Positions 29,733 through 37,617 of a stretch of 64,000 nt of DNA are shown piece after piece. The stretch comes from Candidatus Brocadiia bacterium (GTDB lineage: Bacteria; Planctomycetota; PUPC01), in the NCBI GenBank assembly GCA_030605345.1, contig JAUWIN010000001.1, positions 5,253 to 69,252 on the forward strand, given 5' to 3'. Positions within the stretch are counted from its first letter, which is position 1; every line of letters starts with the position of its first letter. The position numbers were made by a program, and so were the translations under genes. The notes below the pieces were generated by a model, which was not told the DNA's origin, searched no databases, and saw only the letters and a program-made list of their open reading frames with translations.

Positions 29733-31160
29733 GTGTTCTCCCGAATCCTGCTCTGCGCCCGCGGCGAAATAGCCCTCCGGATAATACGCGCCTGTCGGGA
29801 ACTGGGCATAGCGACCGTGGCGGCGTATTCGGAGGCGGACAAGGATGCGGTGTACCTCAACTTTGCCGACGAGACAATCTGCATCGGCCCCGGCCCCAGC
29901 GACCAGAGTTACCTCAACATCCCTGCCATCATCTCCGCCGCCGAAGTCTCCGACGTCGAAGCCATCCACCCAGGCTATGGCTTCCTCTCCGAGGTCAGCC
30001 GGTTCGCCGAGGTCTGCCGCAGCTGTAATGTCGAGTTCATCGGGCCGTCCGTAACCGCGATGAGCCAGATGGGCGACAAGGTCAAGGCTCGCGAAATCGC
30101 CGCAAGTACCGGTGCATCCATTGTCCCCGGCAGCAAGGGCGCGGTGGAGACCGGAGAACAGGCGGTCGAAGTAGCCCACGAAGTGAACTACCCGGTCCTG
30201 GTCAAGGCCGGGCTGGGTGGTGGCGGCCGGGGAATGCGCGTGGCCCACAACGATATGAGCCTGCTCAATTGCTTCGCCGTGGCTCAGTCTGAGGCCGAGG
30301 CCGCATTCGGCAGCAACGCAGTTTACATCGAGAAATACATTACAGGCGCCCGCCACGTGGAAATCCAGCTGCTCGGCGACCACCACGGCAATGTCATCCA
30401 CCTTGGCGATCGCGACTGCAGCCTCCAGCGGCGGCACCAGAAACTGATTGAAGAGGCCCCATGCCCCGTCCTCGATGACACGGTCAGGGAAAAGCTGGGC
30501 CAATCCGCCATCGCCATCGCCAAACACATCAATTACTACGGCGCCGGTACCGTCGAATTCCTTGTGGACGAGGAGGGTAACTATTACTTCATCGAGATGA
30601 ACTGCCGCATCCAGGTGGAGCATCCCGTAACCGAGATGGTGACGGGGGTGGACATTCTGCGTGAGCAGCTCAGGATCGCCTCCGGCGAGCGGCTGAGCCT
30701 GCGGCAGGATGACATCAACATGCAGGGAGTCGCCATCGAATGCCGCATCAACGCGGAAGACCCGGTGACCTTCCGGCCAGCCCCGGGCACCATAACCAAG
30801 TACTACCCGCCCGGCGGCCCCGGCGTCAGGGTGGATTCCCACGCCTACGCCGGGTTCACCATATCACCGATCTACGATTCGCTGGTGGGCAAGCTGATCG
30901 TGCACCGGAGAAATCGCCGCGAGGCTATCGCCTGCATGCAGCGGGCACTCCAGGAGTACATCATCGACGGCATCAAGACGACTATCCCCCTATACATTGA
31001 AATCTTCGACCACAGCGCATTCCTGTCCGGACGAATCGACACCAAGTTCGTCGAGAACGTCTTGGACAACGGCGGGTTCTCTAACGCCAAGACCGGCTCA
31101 GGCGGGACGGAAACGGGTCGAACACAGCAGGCGACAACTCCCCAGAAAGGAGGAAAGTAG
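29733..31160 (+). CDS. accC: acetyl-CoA carboxylase biotin carboxylase subunit
   Basis: ATP-grasp motifs YPVLVKAGLGGGGRGMRV, EMNCRIQVEHPVTE; 475 aa. Confidence 0.9.
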   Translation: MFSRILLCARGEIALRIIRACRELGIATVAAYSEADKDAVYLNFADETICIGPGPSDQSYLNIPAIISAAEVSDVEAIHPGYGFLSEVSRFAEVCRSCNVEFIGPSVTAMSQMGDKVKAREIAASTGASIVPGSKGAVETGEQAVEVAHEVNYPVLVKAGLGGGGRGMRVAHNDMSLLNCFAVAQSEAEAAFGSNAVYIEKYITGARHVEIQLLGDHHGNVIHLGDRDCSLQRRHQKLIEEAPCPVLDDTVREKLGQSAIAIAKHINYYGAGTVEFLVDEEGNYYFIEMNCRIQVEHPVTEMVTGVDILREQLRIASGERLSLRQDDINMQGVAIECRINAEDPVTFRPAPGTITKYYPPGGPGVRVDSHAYAGFTISPIYDSLVGKLIVHRRNRREAIACMQRALQEYIIDGIKTTIPLYIEIFDHSAFLSGRIDTKFVENVLDNGGFSNAKTGSGGTETGRTQQATTPQKGGK

Positions 31161-31161
31161 G

Positions 31162-31770
31162 ATGGCGAATTCCTTGAAGAAAAGCCGTTACCTTGGATAC
31201 CTCTTGCTGATGGCAGCGGGGGTTCTGCTTTGCGTCATATCCTTTCGCCACCTCGCAACGCGGCCTGCTGTCTGGTTGTTGGACGTGGTCTCCATCATCT
31301 TCGGCGCCGGACTGTTCGGCTGGCAATTGCTCAGGCTCATCAGGACGTTCAGGCGCGACGTGAGAAGATTTGTCAGGATCAAGAGCGAGACCGGAAGCGT
31401 CCGCGTGCACGCAGGGGCCGTGGAGCAGGCACTCCGTCACACCGCCAAGTCCCTGCCCGAAGTGCACGACGTCCGGGTGAGACTGGTGCTCGACAAGCAG
31501 AGCGGCCTACCTTCAGCCGGCGAGGTTGACGCCCGGATAAAGGACATCACAAATATCGTCTCGGTGCACGACGCACTGTCCAAGGTGCTTGCCGAGAGGT
31601 ACCAGCAAATCATCCCTGGCGCCCCCACCATCGACTTTCACCTGACAATCAAGCATCACTTCAAGCCCCCCCGCGAGCACAGAGCCCACCACAAGAAGAA
31701 AAAGTCGGTACCGCCCGAGGAAGACGAGACCAAGTCGATAAGAGCACCTCAATATCCAGTGCCGAAATAA
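31162..31770 (+). CDS. membrane protein with an Asp23/Gls24 (AmaP-like) domain
   Basis: Two N-terminal hydrophobic helices, then a ~100-aa region resembling alkaline-shock-protein-23 family spacing, then a Lys-rich tail. Weak call. Confidence 0.4.
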   Translation: MANSLKKSRYLGYLLLMAAGVLLCVISFRHLATRPAVWLLDVVSIIFGAGLFGWQLLRLIRTFRRDVRRFVRIKSETGSVRVHAGAVEQALRHTAKSLPEVHDVRVRLVLDKQSGLPSAGEVDARIKDITNIVSVHDALSKVLAERYQQIIPGAPTIDFHLTIKHHFKPPREHRAHHKKKKSVPPEEDETKSIRAPQYPVPK

Positions 31771-31832: not shown

Positions 31833-33293
31833 TTACTTCTCGGTGCTGTCCCCGAACACCTGCGCCGAATAGATATACACCTGCGTCTCGTCGTCCTTCC
31901 ATGCGTCAGGGGCTATCCCAATCTTGCGTCGGCAGAGATGCGAGATAAACGTCCGCCTGTCCCAGCCCTGCTCCGTGGCAACCTGCGGCAGGTAGGTCCC
32001 GGTCCGCCTGCCGCGACGGATGTACAGGCCGTGAATGCCGGGGACGAAGTTGAGGGGGTCTTTGACGCGCACCATCGGCGACAGCACCGAAATCTGAATG
32101 CCTATCTCCGGCTCCTCCTCCGACGTTATTGGGTCGCCGACGAAGCGCCGATCGTGCGCCGCCGCAACCGCCATCTCGCCTGCCAGTTTCCAGAGCGGTT
32201 GGTGTGGCACGAACCGCCCGATGCAGCCGCGCAGCCGCCCCTTGTTCTTGTAGGTCACAAACACCCCCCGCTCGACCTGGAGGTCTTTGTTCTGGATGTC
32301 GAACTCCGGCGGCGGCTCGCCGTTCAGCACCGCCCGCAGCGTCTGGCGCGCCACCTCCAGCAGTCTCTTCCGGCCCGCGGCGCCCACCTCGCCGGGCCCG
32401 ATGCTGAATACGCACGCGGCGTAACTTACCGAGTGGCTGTAGTCATTGTTCAGGTCGCCCGACATGTAATACTCGAGCAATTTGCCACGGCAGTCGGGGG
32501 TCAGCATCTCGAGCATCACCGAGATGGGAACCCGCCCGCAAATTGTCGCCCCCGTCTCCGACACATACTTCCGAAAACCGGACGGGTCCACCTTCAGTAT
32601 GTGTTCCACCGCTCCCTTGTCGAGCTTCTCGATATTGGCGCGGAGATTTTTCTGGAACGGCGTAAAACCGAACCTCCGGCCGTAGTGCGTGAAGTCCGAA
32701 CTCGCCACCACCAGGGTGTGCGCGTCGACGTGCCGCCGCAGAATTTTTCCGAGTTCCGAGTGCTCCTTCTCCTTCAGCGACCCTAACACAATTGGCACCA
32801 AACTGAATTTCTTCAGCGCTACCTGGAGGAACGGCAGTTGGAGCTCGAGCGAATGTTCTTCGCTGTGCGCACCCGGAACCGTCCTGACCAGCGGTGACTT
32901 GAGCACCGCGTCGCACACGGCCCGGTCGAGCGGAATCCTGCCCAGCGGTGTCTGGTAGAAATCGACCTTTGGAATAGACCCGCCGTGGAACCGGAGGTGG
33001 TGAGAAGGCCCCATCAGGATGACGCGGCGGATGTCACAGCCGCGAAGTTGGGCGTATGCTGCGCCGGCACAACGCCCGGAAAATCGGTAGCCCGCGTGCG
33101 GCGAAATCAGCGCCACCGGCGGCCCGCCGAGCTCCGCCTTCGGCGCCTTGGCAAAATATCCCTCAATCTGCTTCCGGAGAACCTTCGCCTCAGCCGGATA
33201 CCACGTTCCCGCCATGGCCGCGGGGCGGACCCTTGCCTCACCTGCCTCCGCAACAACAGTTAGCGTCAACAGAAAAATAGGCCAAATCTTCAT
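31833..33293 (-). CDS. fusion protein: MEMO1-like (AmmeMemoRadiSam system protein B) N-terminal domain + AMMECR1 C-terminal domain, with a predicted signal peptide
   Basis: The N-terminus MKIWPIFLLTLTVVAEAGEA (GGAGGG RBS 8 nt upstream) is followed by the Memo motif MAGTWYP...LISPHAGY...HSLELQLPFL. The C-terminal part (GCIGRF...) is AMMECR1-like. Confidence 0.7.
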   Translation of the reverse strand: MKIWPIFLLTLTVVAEAGEARVRPAAMAGTWYPAEAKVLRKQIEGYFAKAPKAELGGPPVALISPHAGYRFSGRCAGAAYAQLRGCDIRRVILMGPSHHLRFHGGSIPKVDFYQTPLGRIPLDRAVCDAVLKSPLVRTVPGAHSEEHSLELQLPFLQVALKKFSLVPIVLGSLKEKEHSELGKILRRHVDAHTLVVASSDFTHYGRRFGFTPFQKNLRANIEKLDKGAVEHILKVDPSGFRKYVSETGATICGRVPISVMLEMLTPDCRGKLLEYYMSGDLNNDYSHSVSYAACVFSIGPGEVGAAGRKRLLEVARQTLRAVLNGEPPPEFDIQNKDLQVERGVFVTYKNKGRLRGCIGRFVPHQPLWKLAGEMAVAAAHDRRFVGDPITSEEEPEIGIQISVLSPMVRVKDPLNFVPGIHGLYIRRGRRTGTYLPQVATEQGWDRRTFISHLCRRKIGIAPDAWKDDETQVYIYSAQVFGDSTEK

Positions 33294-33468
33294 AACCTTC
33301 CCTCCTGAAGCCATTGTCATTACATGATTTTAGCGCTCGGCAGGGCGCAATCAAACTCAATTGCGCCGCCGGCGATTTGCGAGAGCCATTGACAACGCGG
33401 CCACAGGAGCAAAGAATAAGATAGAGGTCGTAGCTGGCGGTGTGTCCCAATCTGCGGAGATATTTCAA

Positions 33469-33882
33469 ATGGTTGCCTCCCCCAGAAAACGAAAAGCTCT
33501 CTATGGCGTTGCTGTCGGCTTCCTTCTTTCTGCCGGCATAGCCGCATGGTGGCTCCTGGGGCGAAACCCCGAGAGAGTCCATAGGGTATATGTTGCTCCT
33601 GACAATTCGTTCCAGGTGGTTGTTAGTGTTACGAAGCAGCATTGGCCCTACGGAGTCCAGGGCAACTACTACCTGACGGACATCACGCTGACACGCTGGC
33701 GCAAGGTCGACGACTACTTTGTGGACTTTCTGGACGACCCCGAGATGATCCTGCGATGGGATGAACACCGCCGAGGGTTTGTGTACATTGGTAAGATATC
33801 GGGGCCGGTCCTCATCAACTGCGAAACCTTTCCACTTGCACATCAGGACAAACCGTTTCCCTTTGACCTCGCGCCCCAGTAG
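33469..33882 (+). CDS. hypothetical membrane-anchored protein
   Basis: ORF with an N-terminal TM helix (ALYGVAVGFLLSAGIAAWWLL); no recognisable domain. Start ambiguous. Confidence 0.3.
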   Translation: MVASPRKRKALYGVAVGFLLSAGIAAWWLLGRNPERVHRVYVAPDNSFQVVVSVTKQHWPYGVQGNYYLTDITLTRWRKVDDYFVDFLDDPEMILRWDEHRRGFVYIGKISGPVLINCETFPLAHQDKPFPFDLAPQ

Positions 33883-34424: not shown

Positions 34425-34759
34425 TGTAAGTGTGCCCTATGAGAAAGATAACGCGCGGAGCGAGAGAGCGGGATCACAGACGCGCCTTTGCCCGACACGG
34501 GTAGCGGTGCGCCAGCGACCCTAACCGGGGCGGTGCGTAAGCCGCACCCGAGGAGGTGACGCGGAGCCATGCGCGCTCCAACCAACCGTGGCAGCCAGCG
34601 GCGAGCGAAAGGAGGTGATGCGAGGCAAGCACAACCGATGCAACGCCAGCCGTGAATTTGCGGGCCGCGGGCGAATTGGCGGCCATCACCCACTGGAGAC
34701 GGCGCTCATTGTGTTTGGCGCATAAGACTAATCTGCATTTTTGTCGGAGGGACGAGAAA

Positions 34760-35491
34760 ATGAAAAGAGTGAGTTTGCTGGCGGCGCTCGTGTTACTGCT
34801 CACGATTGCCCCGGCGCAGGCGGTGTCGATCCAAATGACCGACGCCACCCCGCACTACGTCAATACCAAGGAGAACTGCTGCACGCCGGCGGAATGCGAC
34901 ATCTGCAAGATCACCGGGTTCTACAACTCGACCCCGGCGGCCGCGGGAGGAAACACAGACTTCACCAACGCGTTCAATGCCTGGGAAGACGACAACGAGG
35001 GCTGGACAATCGTTAACGCCGGGGCCTTGTCGGGAACGTTTCAGATTACCACGTTCGACGCCAAGTTCGACGGGTGCAGCGGCGGGGTGGAGTTCCAGGT
35101 CACCTATGTACCCGGCGAGGGCGACCCAGCGGTGGGCGATACGAACTGGGCACAGGCGATCGACACCAACGACCCCTTGGGCGGCAAAACCAGCCCCTAC
35201 CTGGACATCGCGTCCGGCAAGGACGAGGACCCGCCGCTCTATCCCCACTCATACCCGGACGGGTATTTCTATGACTGGCCCAAGCGAGGATGCCCGGATG
35301 ACTGCGAAGAGACCGTGAGTTGGGAAGGTCACCTGTACTTGACCGCGATCGACCGCGCCGCCGAGAAGTTGTCCCTCTACGAAGGGATCGTATGGGGCTT
35401 CGGGCTGGACTGCGTCGTGCCCGAGCCGGCGATGCTGCCCCTGCTGGGGCTGGGCGTCGCGGCCGTGCTCAACCGCCGCCGGAGGAGGTAA
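34760..35491 (+). CDS. PEP-CTERM sorting domain-containing exported protein
   Basis: Signal peptide MKRVSLLAALVLLLTIAPAQA. C-terminus VPEPAMLPLLGLGVAAVLNRRRRR is the PEP motif plus TM helix plus Arg cluster. Confidence 0.75.
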   Translation: MKRVSLLAALVLLLTIAPAQAVSIQMTDATPHYVNTKENCCTPAECDICKITGFYNSTPAAAGGNTDFTNAFNAWEDDNEGWTIVNAGALSGTFQITTFDAKFDGCSGGVEFQVTYVPGEGDPAVGDTNWAQAIDTNDPLGGKTSPYLDIASGKDEDPPLYPHSYPDGYFYDWPKRGCPDDCEETVSWEGHLYLTAIDRAAEKLSLYEGIVWGFGLDCVVPEPAMLPLLGLGVAAVLNRRRRR

Positions 35492-35748: not shown

Positions 35749-37617
35749 GTGGAATTGTGGGCAGGACTCATGGAGCAAACGGTTTGCAGCGCCTGCGGCC
35801 GCCAAATGACACTGAAGGACCTGGAGAACAACTCGTTCTCCGAGGTGGACGGCAAGATGTACTGTCCGCAGTGCTTCTTGAAGATTGGCCATCCGAGGAA
35901 AATGCGCTGTCCGAACTGCGGGAGGGAGACGACCGCCCTGCTTCGCAACGGCGTTTATACCTGTATTTACTGTGGGGAGAAAATTGGCGGCCGGCAGGAG
36001 TCCGGTGTCATCGCTTCGGCGCGGCCGTCTGCGGGCCGAGACTCCACCGTCCGTAGGCCAGCCGCCGCTGCTCCGCGCCCTCTGCGGCCCCAAAAAGACC
36101 GCAAAGTCCAGGTGCTGGCTGTGGCATTGAGCGGCTTCGCTGCCGCCTCACTAATCCTCGCCGCCCTCCTGGTCAGAGCGCATTTCAGCCGCGACGCGGA
36201 GCCCAGCCAGCCAGCCGCACACGGGGAGGAGCAGAAACAGCCGGTCAGACCTGAACCGAAGAGCAAGGACGCCGAAGCCCTTCAGCGTGTTCAAAACTGG
36301 GTCAAGGAAAACCCCGAGAAGATCGAGCAGGGTATCAAACTATACAACCAGACAATTCAGGATATGACCGACCCTGTTTTCAAGGCGAGAACGAGGATAG
36401 CGGTGATCGCACTCCAGACAAAGCTCGAGCAGGCCGACAGGGTGAAGCAGGGAAAGCTTGAGCAACTTACCCGCGAACTCGAAGAGGCGCGGGAACAAAT
36501 CCAAAACCTTAAAACGCGCCTGGAAAAAGCGAGCCGCGCACCCGCCCCCAAGGAAGCGCAACCGCCAGCACCGCGCACAACTGAGACCGCTCCCAAGACT
36601 ACCCCTGCGGAAAAGCGCGCCCGGGAAGCAGCAGCCGCGTTTCAAGACGCCCTCGGCAAAGCCCAAAAACAGCAAGCCCTGAAGCAATACGGTCAGGCGA
36701 TGAAAACGATGCAAGCGTTCGCCGACAACTATCAGCACACCGAATACGGAGGGAAGGCGGAGGATAAGTGTAAGACCATCAGTCGCCATGCATACGGGCA
36801 ATTCGGCACCCTGAGAAAGCGTGCCGACGTGCTGGTCGAACAAGGGGATTACACCGGGGCGCGCCAGCTCTATGCGAGCGCCCTGGGCTTTGGGGTGCCC
36901 GACATCACTGGCTTGGTGGAGCAATGCCTCGCCGAAATTCGCCGGCTCGAAGAAAACCAGGTCGGCGCCACGGCCAAGGAACCGACCCCGCCAGCCGTGA
37001 AAAGGCAGATTGAGGCGCTCAGCAGTGAAGATAAATCTGAGCGAGCAGAAGCCGCACGCAGACTGGGCGACCTTGGTGACCCGGCGGCTGTGCTCCCCCT
37101 CATCGAGGCGTTGAAGGACGAGGACTCGTGGAACGTCAGGGCTTGCGCCGCGAAGAGCCTGGGGAAACTGGGCGAAATCAGCGCCGTCCCGGCTCTGATT
37201 GACGCGCTCGGAGATAAGTCGGACGGCGTAGCGTTCGACGCTCACAACGCGCTAAAGGCGATAACGGGCGAGCAGTTCTCCCGAGCCCAGAGGGCAAAGT
37301 GGCTGGCGTGGTATAAAGAGAACAAGGTCGGAGCTCAGCGACCGGCGCCGAAGCCTGTTCAACAAAAGGGGAGTAGTGCATTTACCTCAACCGTCATCGA
37401 GCGCAGATATGACCCCGACACGGTGTCCTTCGTCGTGCCAGAGGGCAAGACCCTCGCCGCCGGCACAAATGTAAAACTGCTGCGAGATGGCGACCACATC
37501 TGTAACGTCCTCATCCAGCAGGTAGCCGGCGCGCAGGCGTTCGGCGAACTGTCTGGCCTGCAGCACGGCGCGGAAGTGGCGCCCGGAGACAAGATTACCG
37601 TTCAGCCGCCAGAATAA
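35749..37617 (+). CDS. zinc-ribbon / coiled-coil / HEAT-repeat (PBS-lyase type) membrane-anchored protein
   Basis: N-terminal CSACGR...CPQC and CPNCGR...CIYCGE ribbons, a single TM helix, a long Lys/Glu/Ala-rich coiled coil, then HEAT-like repeats (RRLGDLGDPAAVLPLIEALKDEDSWNVRACAAKSLGKLG). Confidence 0.6.
   Translation: MELWAGLMEQTVCSACGRQMTLKDLENNSFSEVDGKMYCPQCFLKIGHPRKMRCPNCGRETTALLRNGVYTCIYCGEKIGGRQESGVIASARPSAGRDSTVRRPAAAAPRPLRPQKDRKVQVLAVALSGFAAASLILAALLVRAHFSRDAEPSQPAAHGEEQKQPVRPEPKSKDAEALQRVQNWVKENPEKIEQGIKLYNQTIQDMTDPVFKARTRIAVIALQTKLEQADRVKQGKLEQLTRELEEAREQIQNLKTRLEKASRAPAPKEAQPPAPRTTETAPKTTPAEKRAREAAAAFQDALGKAQKQQALKQYGQAMKTMQAFADNYQHTEYGGKAEDKCKTISRHAYGQFGTLRKRADVLVEQGDYTGARQLYASALGFGVPDITGLVEQCLAEIRRLEENQVGATAKEPTPPAVKRQIEALSSEDKSERAEAARRLGDLGDPAAVLPLIEALKDEDSWNVRACAAKSLGKLGEISAVPALIDALGDKSDGVAFDAHNALKAITGEQFSRAQRAKWLAWYKENKVGAQRPAPKPVQQKGSSAFTSTVIERRYDPDTVSFVVPEGKTLAAGTNVKLLRDGDHICNVLIQQVAGAQAFGELSGLQHGAEVAPGDKITVQPPE

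Follow-up and report, generated by a model that had tools for sequence, protein, structure and literature searches.

The 64-kb window analysed here (the whole 64,000-nucleotide stretch of contig JAUWIN010000001.1, from Candidatus Brocadiia bacterium) contains a complete coding sequence at 31833..33293 on the reverse strand. According to the open reading frame list, inspection of the sequence, and Pfam and NCBIfam searches, its 486 codons plus stop specify a predicted signal peptide, a Memo domain and an AMMECR1 domain, and a database protein of the same length (P0001, 486 aa) is a 100% match. The gene starts at the ATG at 33293, ahead of the signal-peptide segment. A Shine-Dalgarno-like AGGAGGG lies just upstream (33300..33306, reverse strand), its GGAGG core 7 nt 5' of that ATG; the original prediction had already proposed this start on the basis of a ribosome-binding site. 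This start also agrees with that of relatives, which open with M-[KR]-x-W-P. Further upstream, TTGATT-16-TAAAAT (33327..33354, reverse strand) resembles a sigma-70 promoter by consensus match only, in a region where three such sites were observed and 0.6 were expected. An in-frame ATG at 33320 would give a longer reading frame, has no Shine-Dalgarno sequence, and would affect only the length of the signal n-region.

Pfam places Memo (4.7e-65) ahead of AMMECR1 (4.5e-47), which bears out the predicted 486-residue fusion. The Memo (LigB-superfamily) domain covers residues 23–296 (32406..33227, reverse strand), as delimited by phmmer, Foldseek, Pfam and NCBIfam; PF01875 scored 219.9 bits (cutoff 27) over profile positions 2–268 of 269, and TIGR04336 (AmmeMemoRadiSam protein B) scored 246.9 bits (cutoff 26) over positions 1–270 of 270. 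The AMMECR1 domain covers residues 313–480 (31854..32357, reverse strand) according to Pfam, TIGR04335, structure 1vaj and Foldseek; here PF01871 reached 160.1 bits (cutoff 25), and TIGR04335 (AmmeMemoRadiSam protein A) was matched end to end with 145.4 bits (cutoff 99). Among solved structures, phmmer retrieved human MEMO1 (3bcz/7kq8, 3e-47) and PH0010 (1vaj, 6e-20).

The residues expected of both active sites are present. The metal ligands of MEMO1 are H49, H81 and C244 (PMC11081632), and alignment to them identifies the Memo triad of the window protein as H66 (33096-33098), H98 (33000-33002) and C252 (32538-32540), all on the reverse strand. In the second domain, the RGChG and DxR-aromatic motifs defined for AMMECR1 (Balaji and Aravind, 2007; PMC2034487) are intact as R355-G-C357-I-G359 (RGCIG, with C357 at 32223-32225) and D381-R-R383-F384 (DxRF). 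The residues of the triad and of both motifs are invariant in an alignment of 57 family members (A1). AlphaFold2, given 57 relatives, produced a confident two-domain model (predicted local distance difference test, pLDDT, 93.8; predicted template modelling score, pTM, 0.89). Confidence was low for residues 1–20 (pLDDT 49 and 62) and for the last three residues, and the remainder averaged above 90. Searched with Foldseek, the model gave template modelling (TM) scores of 0.89 to MEMO1 and 0.77 to PH0010; none of the solved structures it matched spans both domains.

Residues 1–20 (MKIWPIFLLTLTVVAEAGEA; 33234..33293, reverse strand) are predicted to form a Sec-type signal peptide, a call that draws on sequence inspection, the low pLDDT of this segment and the N-termini of homologues. 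By inspection, an n-region MK is followed by an h-region of 13 residues (IWPIFLLTLTVVA) and a c-region EAGEA. Cleavage sites of the AXA type are possible after A17 (AEA/G) or A20 (GEA/R), both of which satisfy the -3/-1 rule. The usual Sec signal features (a positive n-region, an h-region of 7–15 residues and small residues at -3/-1) are therefore all discernible by eye, and the segment is conserved in relatives. The Tat (twin-arginine translocation) motif S/T-R-R-x-F-L-K is absent from the protein, and residues 1–20 contain no RR. The original prediction had called the protein secreted with a question mark; together with the export signals conserved across relatives, this anatomy makes export of the window protein a well-supported prediction.

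The architecture is widespread. All 120 of the closest database proteins are Memo-AMMECR1 fusions (474–784 aa, mostly from Planctomycetota), as are all of the best 150 cluster representatives at 50% identity, so the fusion is conserved in related genomes. NCBI and JGI label relatives ‘AmmeMemoRadiSam system protein B’ or ‘B/A’. That the fusion is unusual, as originally supposed, does not hold: fusions that join AMMECR1 to a dioxygenase-like (Memo) gene had been described by 2007 (PMC2034487), and the architecture is now represented by no fewer than 150 clusters at 50% identity.

Export signals are similarly common among these proteins. A hydrophobic N-terminal segment is present in 109 of the 120 closest homologs, and the PROSITE lipobox pattern in 50 of them; a lipobox implies extracytoplasmic localisation. 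Under the same heuristic, at least 104 of the best 150 cluster representatives have a signal-like N-terminus, and most of 18 further representatives that lack the anchoring motif look signal-like by eye. We also took 77 non-redundant, 5'-complete fused loci and lengthened their reading frames at the 5' end as far as candidate start codons; 62 of them (81%) then showed a signal peptide or lipobox. The predicted export signal is thus a conserved family trait and not peculiar to the window gene. In two exported fusion variants, P0020 (776 aa) and P0039 (784 aa), precomputed Pfam hits indicate an extra Peptidase_C14 (caspase-like) domain. In a Brocadiia metagenome-assembled genome, an exported fusion is immediately preceded by a stand-alone Memo gene (L009:9003-9929), whose 308-aa TIGR04336 product has a signal peptide of its own (MKKFHLYIVYYILVALTLVATSYS...).

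No gene for a radical SAM (S-adenosylmethionine) enzyme adjoins the fusion gene, as the original prediction had reported, and the absence extends to the whole window. A scan for CxxxCxxC found the motif in none of the stop-to-stop open reading frames of at least 100 aa, and tblastn with a verified TIGR04337 enzyme (L005, 380.9 bits) returned no match even at E = 10. The neighbouring TIGR04337 gene that would complete an AmmeMemoRadiSam three-gene set is accordingly missing from the 64 kb. Likewise, no radical SAM gene was found in the flanks (up to 10 kb per side) of the Planctomycetota loci L001–L004 and L007–L011, two of which (L007 and L008) share the accC-accB-efp-pepP-purB synteny of the window.

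Across the wider family the situation is different. A TIGR04337-like radical SAM gene is found near 31 of the 43 exported fusions with informative flanks and is missing near the other 12; nine of these neighbours, when scored with TIGR04337, gave 357–393 bits against a cutoff of 220. The original description of a fusion without a radical SAM partner is therefore partly supported: it holds for the gene neighbourhood in the window and its own clade, and not for exported fusions at large. With 31 of 43 exported fusions linked to a radical SAM gene, export and a radical SAM partner are not alternatives. In a distance-based neighbour-joining tree, calculated without bootstrap, the window gene groups with L007, L001, L010 and L014, none of which was found to have an adjacent radical SAM gene (the left flank of L001 is short). 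The group lies within a set of radical SAM-linked exported fusions (L012, L013, L015 and L017), which suggests that the linkage may be ancestral. One candidate pattern, in which signal-less fusions would be linked to radical SAM genes and signal-bearing ones would not, was rejected as an artefact of truncated gene calls; P0070, P0075, P0081 and P0100 regain a signal peptide or lipobox when extended upstream.

Many of the partner enzymes appear to carry export signals of their own. Among radical SAM genes beside exported fusions, 10 encode N-terminal extensions of the twin-arginine type with RR (for example MDRRQFLK, SRRAFLK and TRREFLK) and six have KR, a variant seen in some lineages. Of the 120 homologs most similar to the L015 enzyme, 109 have the RR motif, among them proteins of Kuenenia, Brocadia and Scalindua, which are anammox genera, and TIGR01409 scored above its cutoff for two of the enzymes. 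Radical SAM genes beside signal-less fusions or Memo genes (L005, L056, L085, L089 and L092) encode no such extension. TIGR04337 enzymes with a canonical Tat signal are found at L012:4059-5168, L013:2042-3196, L015:6136-7260, L017:12828-14012, L019:9919-11133 and L039:3414-4559. A Tat-exported radical SAM enzyme would be unusual because SAM is a cytoplasmic metabolite.

A further recurrent partner is a polytopic membrane protein that contains a Spermine_synth domain and is encoded directly downstream of the exported fusion at about 19 of 96 loci and often placed between the fusion and the radical SAM gene. In its long versions, FMN_bind and Fer4_5 domains are present as well, and one of them matches MFS_1 weakly; such proteins are encoded at L065:11497-13899, L032:3587-7609, L024:3121-6963, L049:12628-14871 and about 15 other loci. 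A search of the 64-kb window found no homologue or paralogue of the Spermine_synth membrane protein, the fusion or the radical SAM enzyme. Other recurrent neighbours occur at no more than nine loci each, apart from two clusters of open reading frames (34 and 17 loci) that by sequence and position looked like antisense shadows and were set aside. On two Planctomycetota contigs, a PNP_UDP_1 family gene (L096:2488-3366 and L097:7014-7868), which we take to have the nucleoside phosphorylase / methylthioadenosine-S-adenosylhomocysteine nucleosidase fold, lies near stand-alone Tat-type radical SAM genes; this proximity may be coincidence or may reflect a link to 5'-deoxyadenosine salvage.

The reading we favour, at a probability of roughly 0.6, is that the window gene encodes a Sec-exported two-domain enzyme whose place of action is extracytoplasmic, namely the periplasm of a Planctomycetota-like bacterium; it includes, as a slight preference, a Tat-type radical SAM partner encoded at an unlinked site. 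Residues 1–17 or 1–20 would serve as the signal peptide, which signal peptidase I would remove or which, left uncleaved, would keep the protein tethered. In the Memo domain, the mononuclear Fe/Cu site with its intact 2-His-1-Cys ligands would carry out redox chemistry, or chemistry that depends on oxygen, on a substrate outside the cytoplasm; the AMMECR1 cleft, with its conserved RGCIG cysteine, may bind that substrate or relay it via a thiol. The protein belongs to a large clade of exported fusions in which sister lineages, on the neighbour-joining tree without bootstrap, are linked to a Tat-signal TIGR04337 enzyme; in the lineage of the window gene that linkage is broken.

Several points weigh against this reading. 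We know of no reaction established for any member of the Memo or AMMECR1 families, and of no source of SAM for a radical SAM enzyme in the periplasm, which leaves the ancestral system it supposes puzzling. Eukaryotes, to our knowledge, keep MEMO1 and AMMECR1 without a TIGR04337 enzyme, so independence from radical SAM chemistry is possible. The h-region of the signal is short, and its n-region holds a single lysine. MEMO1 was without dioxygenase activity on standard substrates (PMC11081632).

The strongest competing explanation is that the lineage lost its radical SAM enzyme and that the exported fusion acts on its substrate unaided, much as the eukaryotic proteins work without such a partner. 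It accords with the empty 64 kb, with the five related loci placed closest in the tree, none of which shows a radical SAM gene in the flanks fetched, and with the 12 unlinked exported fusions. Set against it are the linkage to radical SAM genes in sister clades and the full retention of the conserved residues, in which relaxed constraint is not seen. In addition, one Brocadiia assembly has a Tat-type radical SAM gene on its own (no Memo or AMMECR1 gene lies closer than 8 kb), and a different Brocadiia assembly has an exported fusion with no radical SAM gene nearby. Because each of the two thus occurs unaccompanied in Brocadiia, the lack of such a gene in the window, which takes in only some 64 kb of an 83-kb source contig, is no proof that the genome lacks one. 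Judging from that 64-kb window, we lean slightly towards a Tat-type partner encoded elsewhere in the genome, which we consider likelier than its loss; loss from this lineage, and with it a fusion that acts alone, is a credible but less favoured outcome.

A broader proposal, which we hold tentatively and consider on the unlikely side, is that the whole AmmeMemoRadiSam pathway is extracytoplasmic in many bacteria. It would comprise the exported fusion, a radical SAM enzyme exported in folded form by Tat, and a dedicated membrane partner that could supply cofactor or electrons; that partner would be the protein with the SAM-binding-fold (Spermine_synth) domain, sometimes with NosR-like flavin mononucleotide/iron-sulfur modules. 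The window enzyme would then be a derivative genetically, and perhaps functionally, independent of radical SAM. A periplasmic radical SAM enzyme would, as far as we know, be without precedent. If the proposal is true, the conserved task of Memo and AMMECR1 would be chemistry on an envelope or extracellular substrate, and not RNA modification.

Whether the N-terminal segment is cleaved bears on where an exported protein would end up. The nearest relatives (66–68% identity) read M-[KR]-x-W-P-...-[TAS]-A-C, a lipobox, and comparison of N-termini (..VTAC/DAQ.. in relatives, ..VVAE/AGE.. in the window protein) places Glu16 (GAG, codon checked; 33246..33248, reverse strand) where the closest relatives have the lipobox cysteine. 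As all three bases of GAG differ from TGY, a single-base error does not account for the difference. With its cysteine replaced, the window protein does not match the lipobox pattern [LVI][ASTVI][GAS]C (PROSITE PS51257), which implies that lipidation was lost in favour of release by signal peptidase I or of an uncleaved tether. The tether, a signal anchor that would hold the protein on the outer face of the cytoplasmic membrane and replace the lost lipid anchor, is in our estimation rather improbable. The predicted lipoproteins among its closest relatives make membrane attachment look ancestral, some relatives have long, transmembrane-like N-termini (e.g., L024 and L062), and the acidic c-region EAGEA would not be an ideal signal peptidase I site. 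A 13-residue h-region is nevertheless short for a stable transmembrane helix, and A15-E16-A17 and G18-E19-A20 both fit the -3/-1 rule.

An ordinary cytoplasmic AmmeMemoRadiSam B/A protein begun at Met27, with the hydrophobic codons upstream left untranslated, is very improbable even though an ATG is present at 33213-33215 and gene callers shortened four relatives in the same way (P0070, P0075, P0081 and P0100), for the hydrophobic segment is kept at the protein level in relatives at 40–68% identity and every shortened relative recovers a signal or lipobox on upstream extension. Met27, which opens MAGTWYP, is not a credible start because sequence inspection reveals no Shine-Dalgarno sequence ahead of it, because N-terminal comparison shows Lys or Val at this position in the closest relatives, and because the Memo domain begins upstream of it, at the nearly invariant Arg23, where both the MEMO1 alignment and the TIGR04336 match begin. 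The original prediction was accordingly right that this ATG has no ribosome-binding site, and its own reservation, that the internal Met might prove to be the true start, is contradicted by the same evidence and by the ribosome-binding site at 33293.

The neighbours of the fusion gene are those originally listed, namely accC (29733..31160), an Asp23-like membrane protein and a hypothetical gene (33361..33882). The gene for the membrane protein (31159..31770, forward strand) reads towards the fusion gene; its product matches AmaP, an alkaline-shock membrane anchor, only weakly (NF033218, 38.7 bits, where the cutoff is 55), and its homologues come after accC in L007 and L008. Two other forward-strand genes of the window encode a 279-aa protein (34652-35491) that opens with a signal-like segment and ends in a PEP-CTERM sorting domain (TIGR02595, 24.5 bits, cutoff 16), and a 622-aa protein (35749-37617) with N-terminal CxxC cysteine pairs, a membrane segment and a coiled-coil-like region; weak CpcE/NblB lyase-type matches at the C-terminus of the latter are read as HEAT-like repeats.

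MEMO1 and AMMECR1 are conserved in all domains of life and linked to human disease. The exported fusions, the Tat signals on their radical SAM partners and the Spermine_synth membrane protein together point experiments toward the cell envelope, and they raise the question whether a radical SAM enzyme can work at all once Tat has carried it away from the SAM of the cytoplasm. The window gene offers a clean, monocistronic example that is unlinked to radical SAM and could be expressed alone. The fusion itself has been known since 2007; its export across a large clade and the Tat signals on partner enzymes appear to be undescribed. We found no description of an extracytoplasmic AmmeMemoRadiSam system in a literature search that covered open-access papers only and is weak evidence of absence. 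Within that scope, ‘AmmeMemoRadiSam’ occurred in body text and in no title or abstract, none of the 25 highest-ranked among 192 AMMECR1 papers from 2017 on had a title concerning prokaryotic function, and no paper was found that combined radical SAM with Tat or periplasm in its title or abstract. One paper concerned a radical SAM-matured effector that is exported in its own right.

Compared with the proteins for which its profiles are named, AmmeMemoRadiSam B and A, the window protein has both models matched end to end above their cutoffs and both the metal triad and the RGCxG and DxR-aromatic motifs intact; it differs in being fused, in its predicted export signal and in the absence of a radical SAM gene from the 64 kb. 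In the classical cassette, of which L005 (Peribacteria) is an example, the radical SAM, Memo and AMMECR1 proteins are encoded by three separate genes, all without a signal. The main role predicted in print is cytoplasmic RNA base modification with a radical SAM enzyme, proposed for AMMECR1 homologues (Balaji and Aravind, 2007; PMC2034487). The finding of a large clade of fused proteins with predicted export speaks against RNA in the cytoplasm as the substrate, for these members at any rate. Human MEMO1 (3BCZ, 7KQ8 and 7L5C), a stand-alone intracellular protein, is about 32–33% identical over the Memo domain, with a TM-score of 0.89 and the same H/H/C Fe/Cu ligands, and it has neither an AMMECR1 domain nor a signal peptide. 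The archaeal AMMECR1 proteins PH0010 (1VAJ), MM0484 (1ZQ7) and ST0229 (1WSC) share the fold of the second domain (TM-score 0.59–0.77) and the same Cys-containing motif, and differ in being stand-alone proteins. Closest in kind are the radical SAM-linked exported fusions (L012, L013, L015, L017, L019 and others); their loci have an adjacent radical SAM gene and, in about 19 cases, a Spermine_synth membrane protein, neither of which the window has, and the proteins themselves share with the window protein 38–46% identity, the same architecture and a signal peptide or lipobox.

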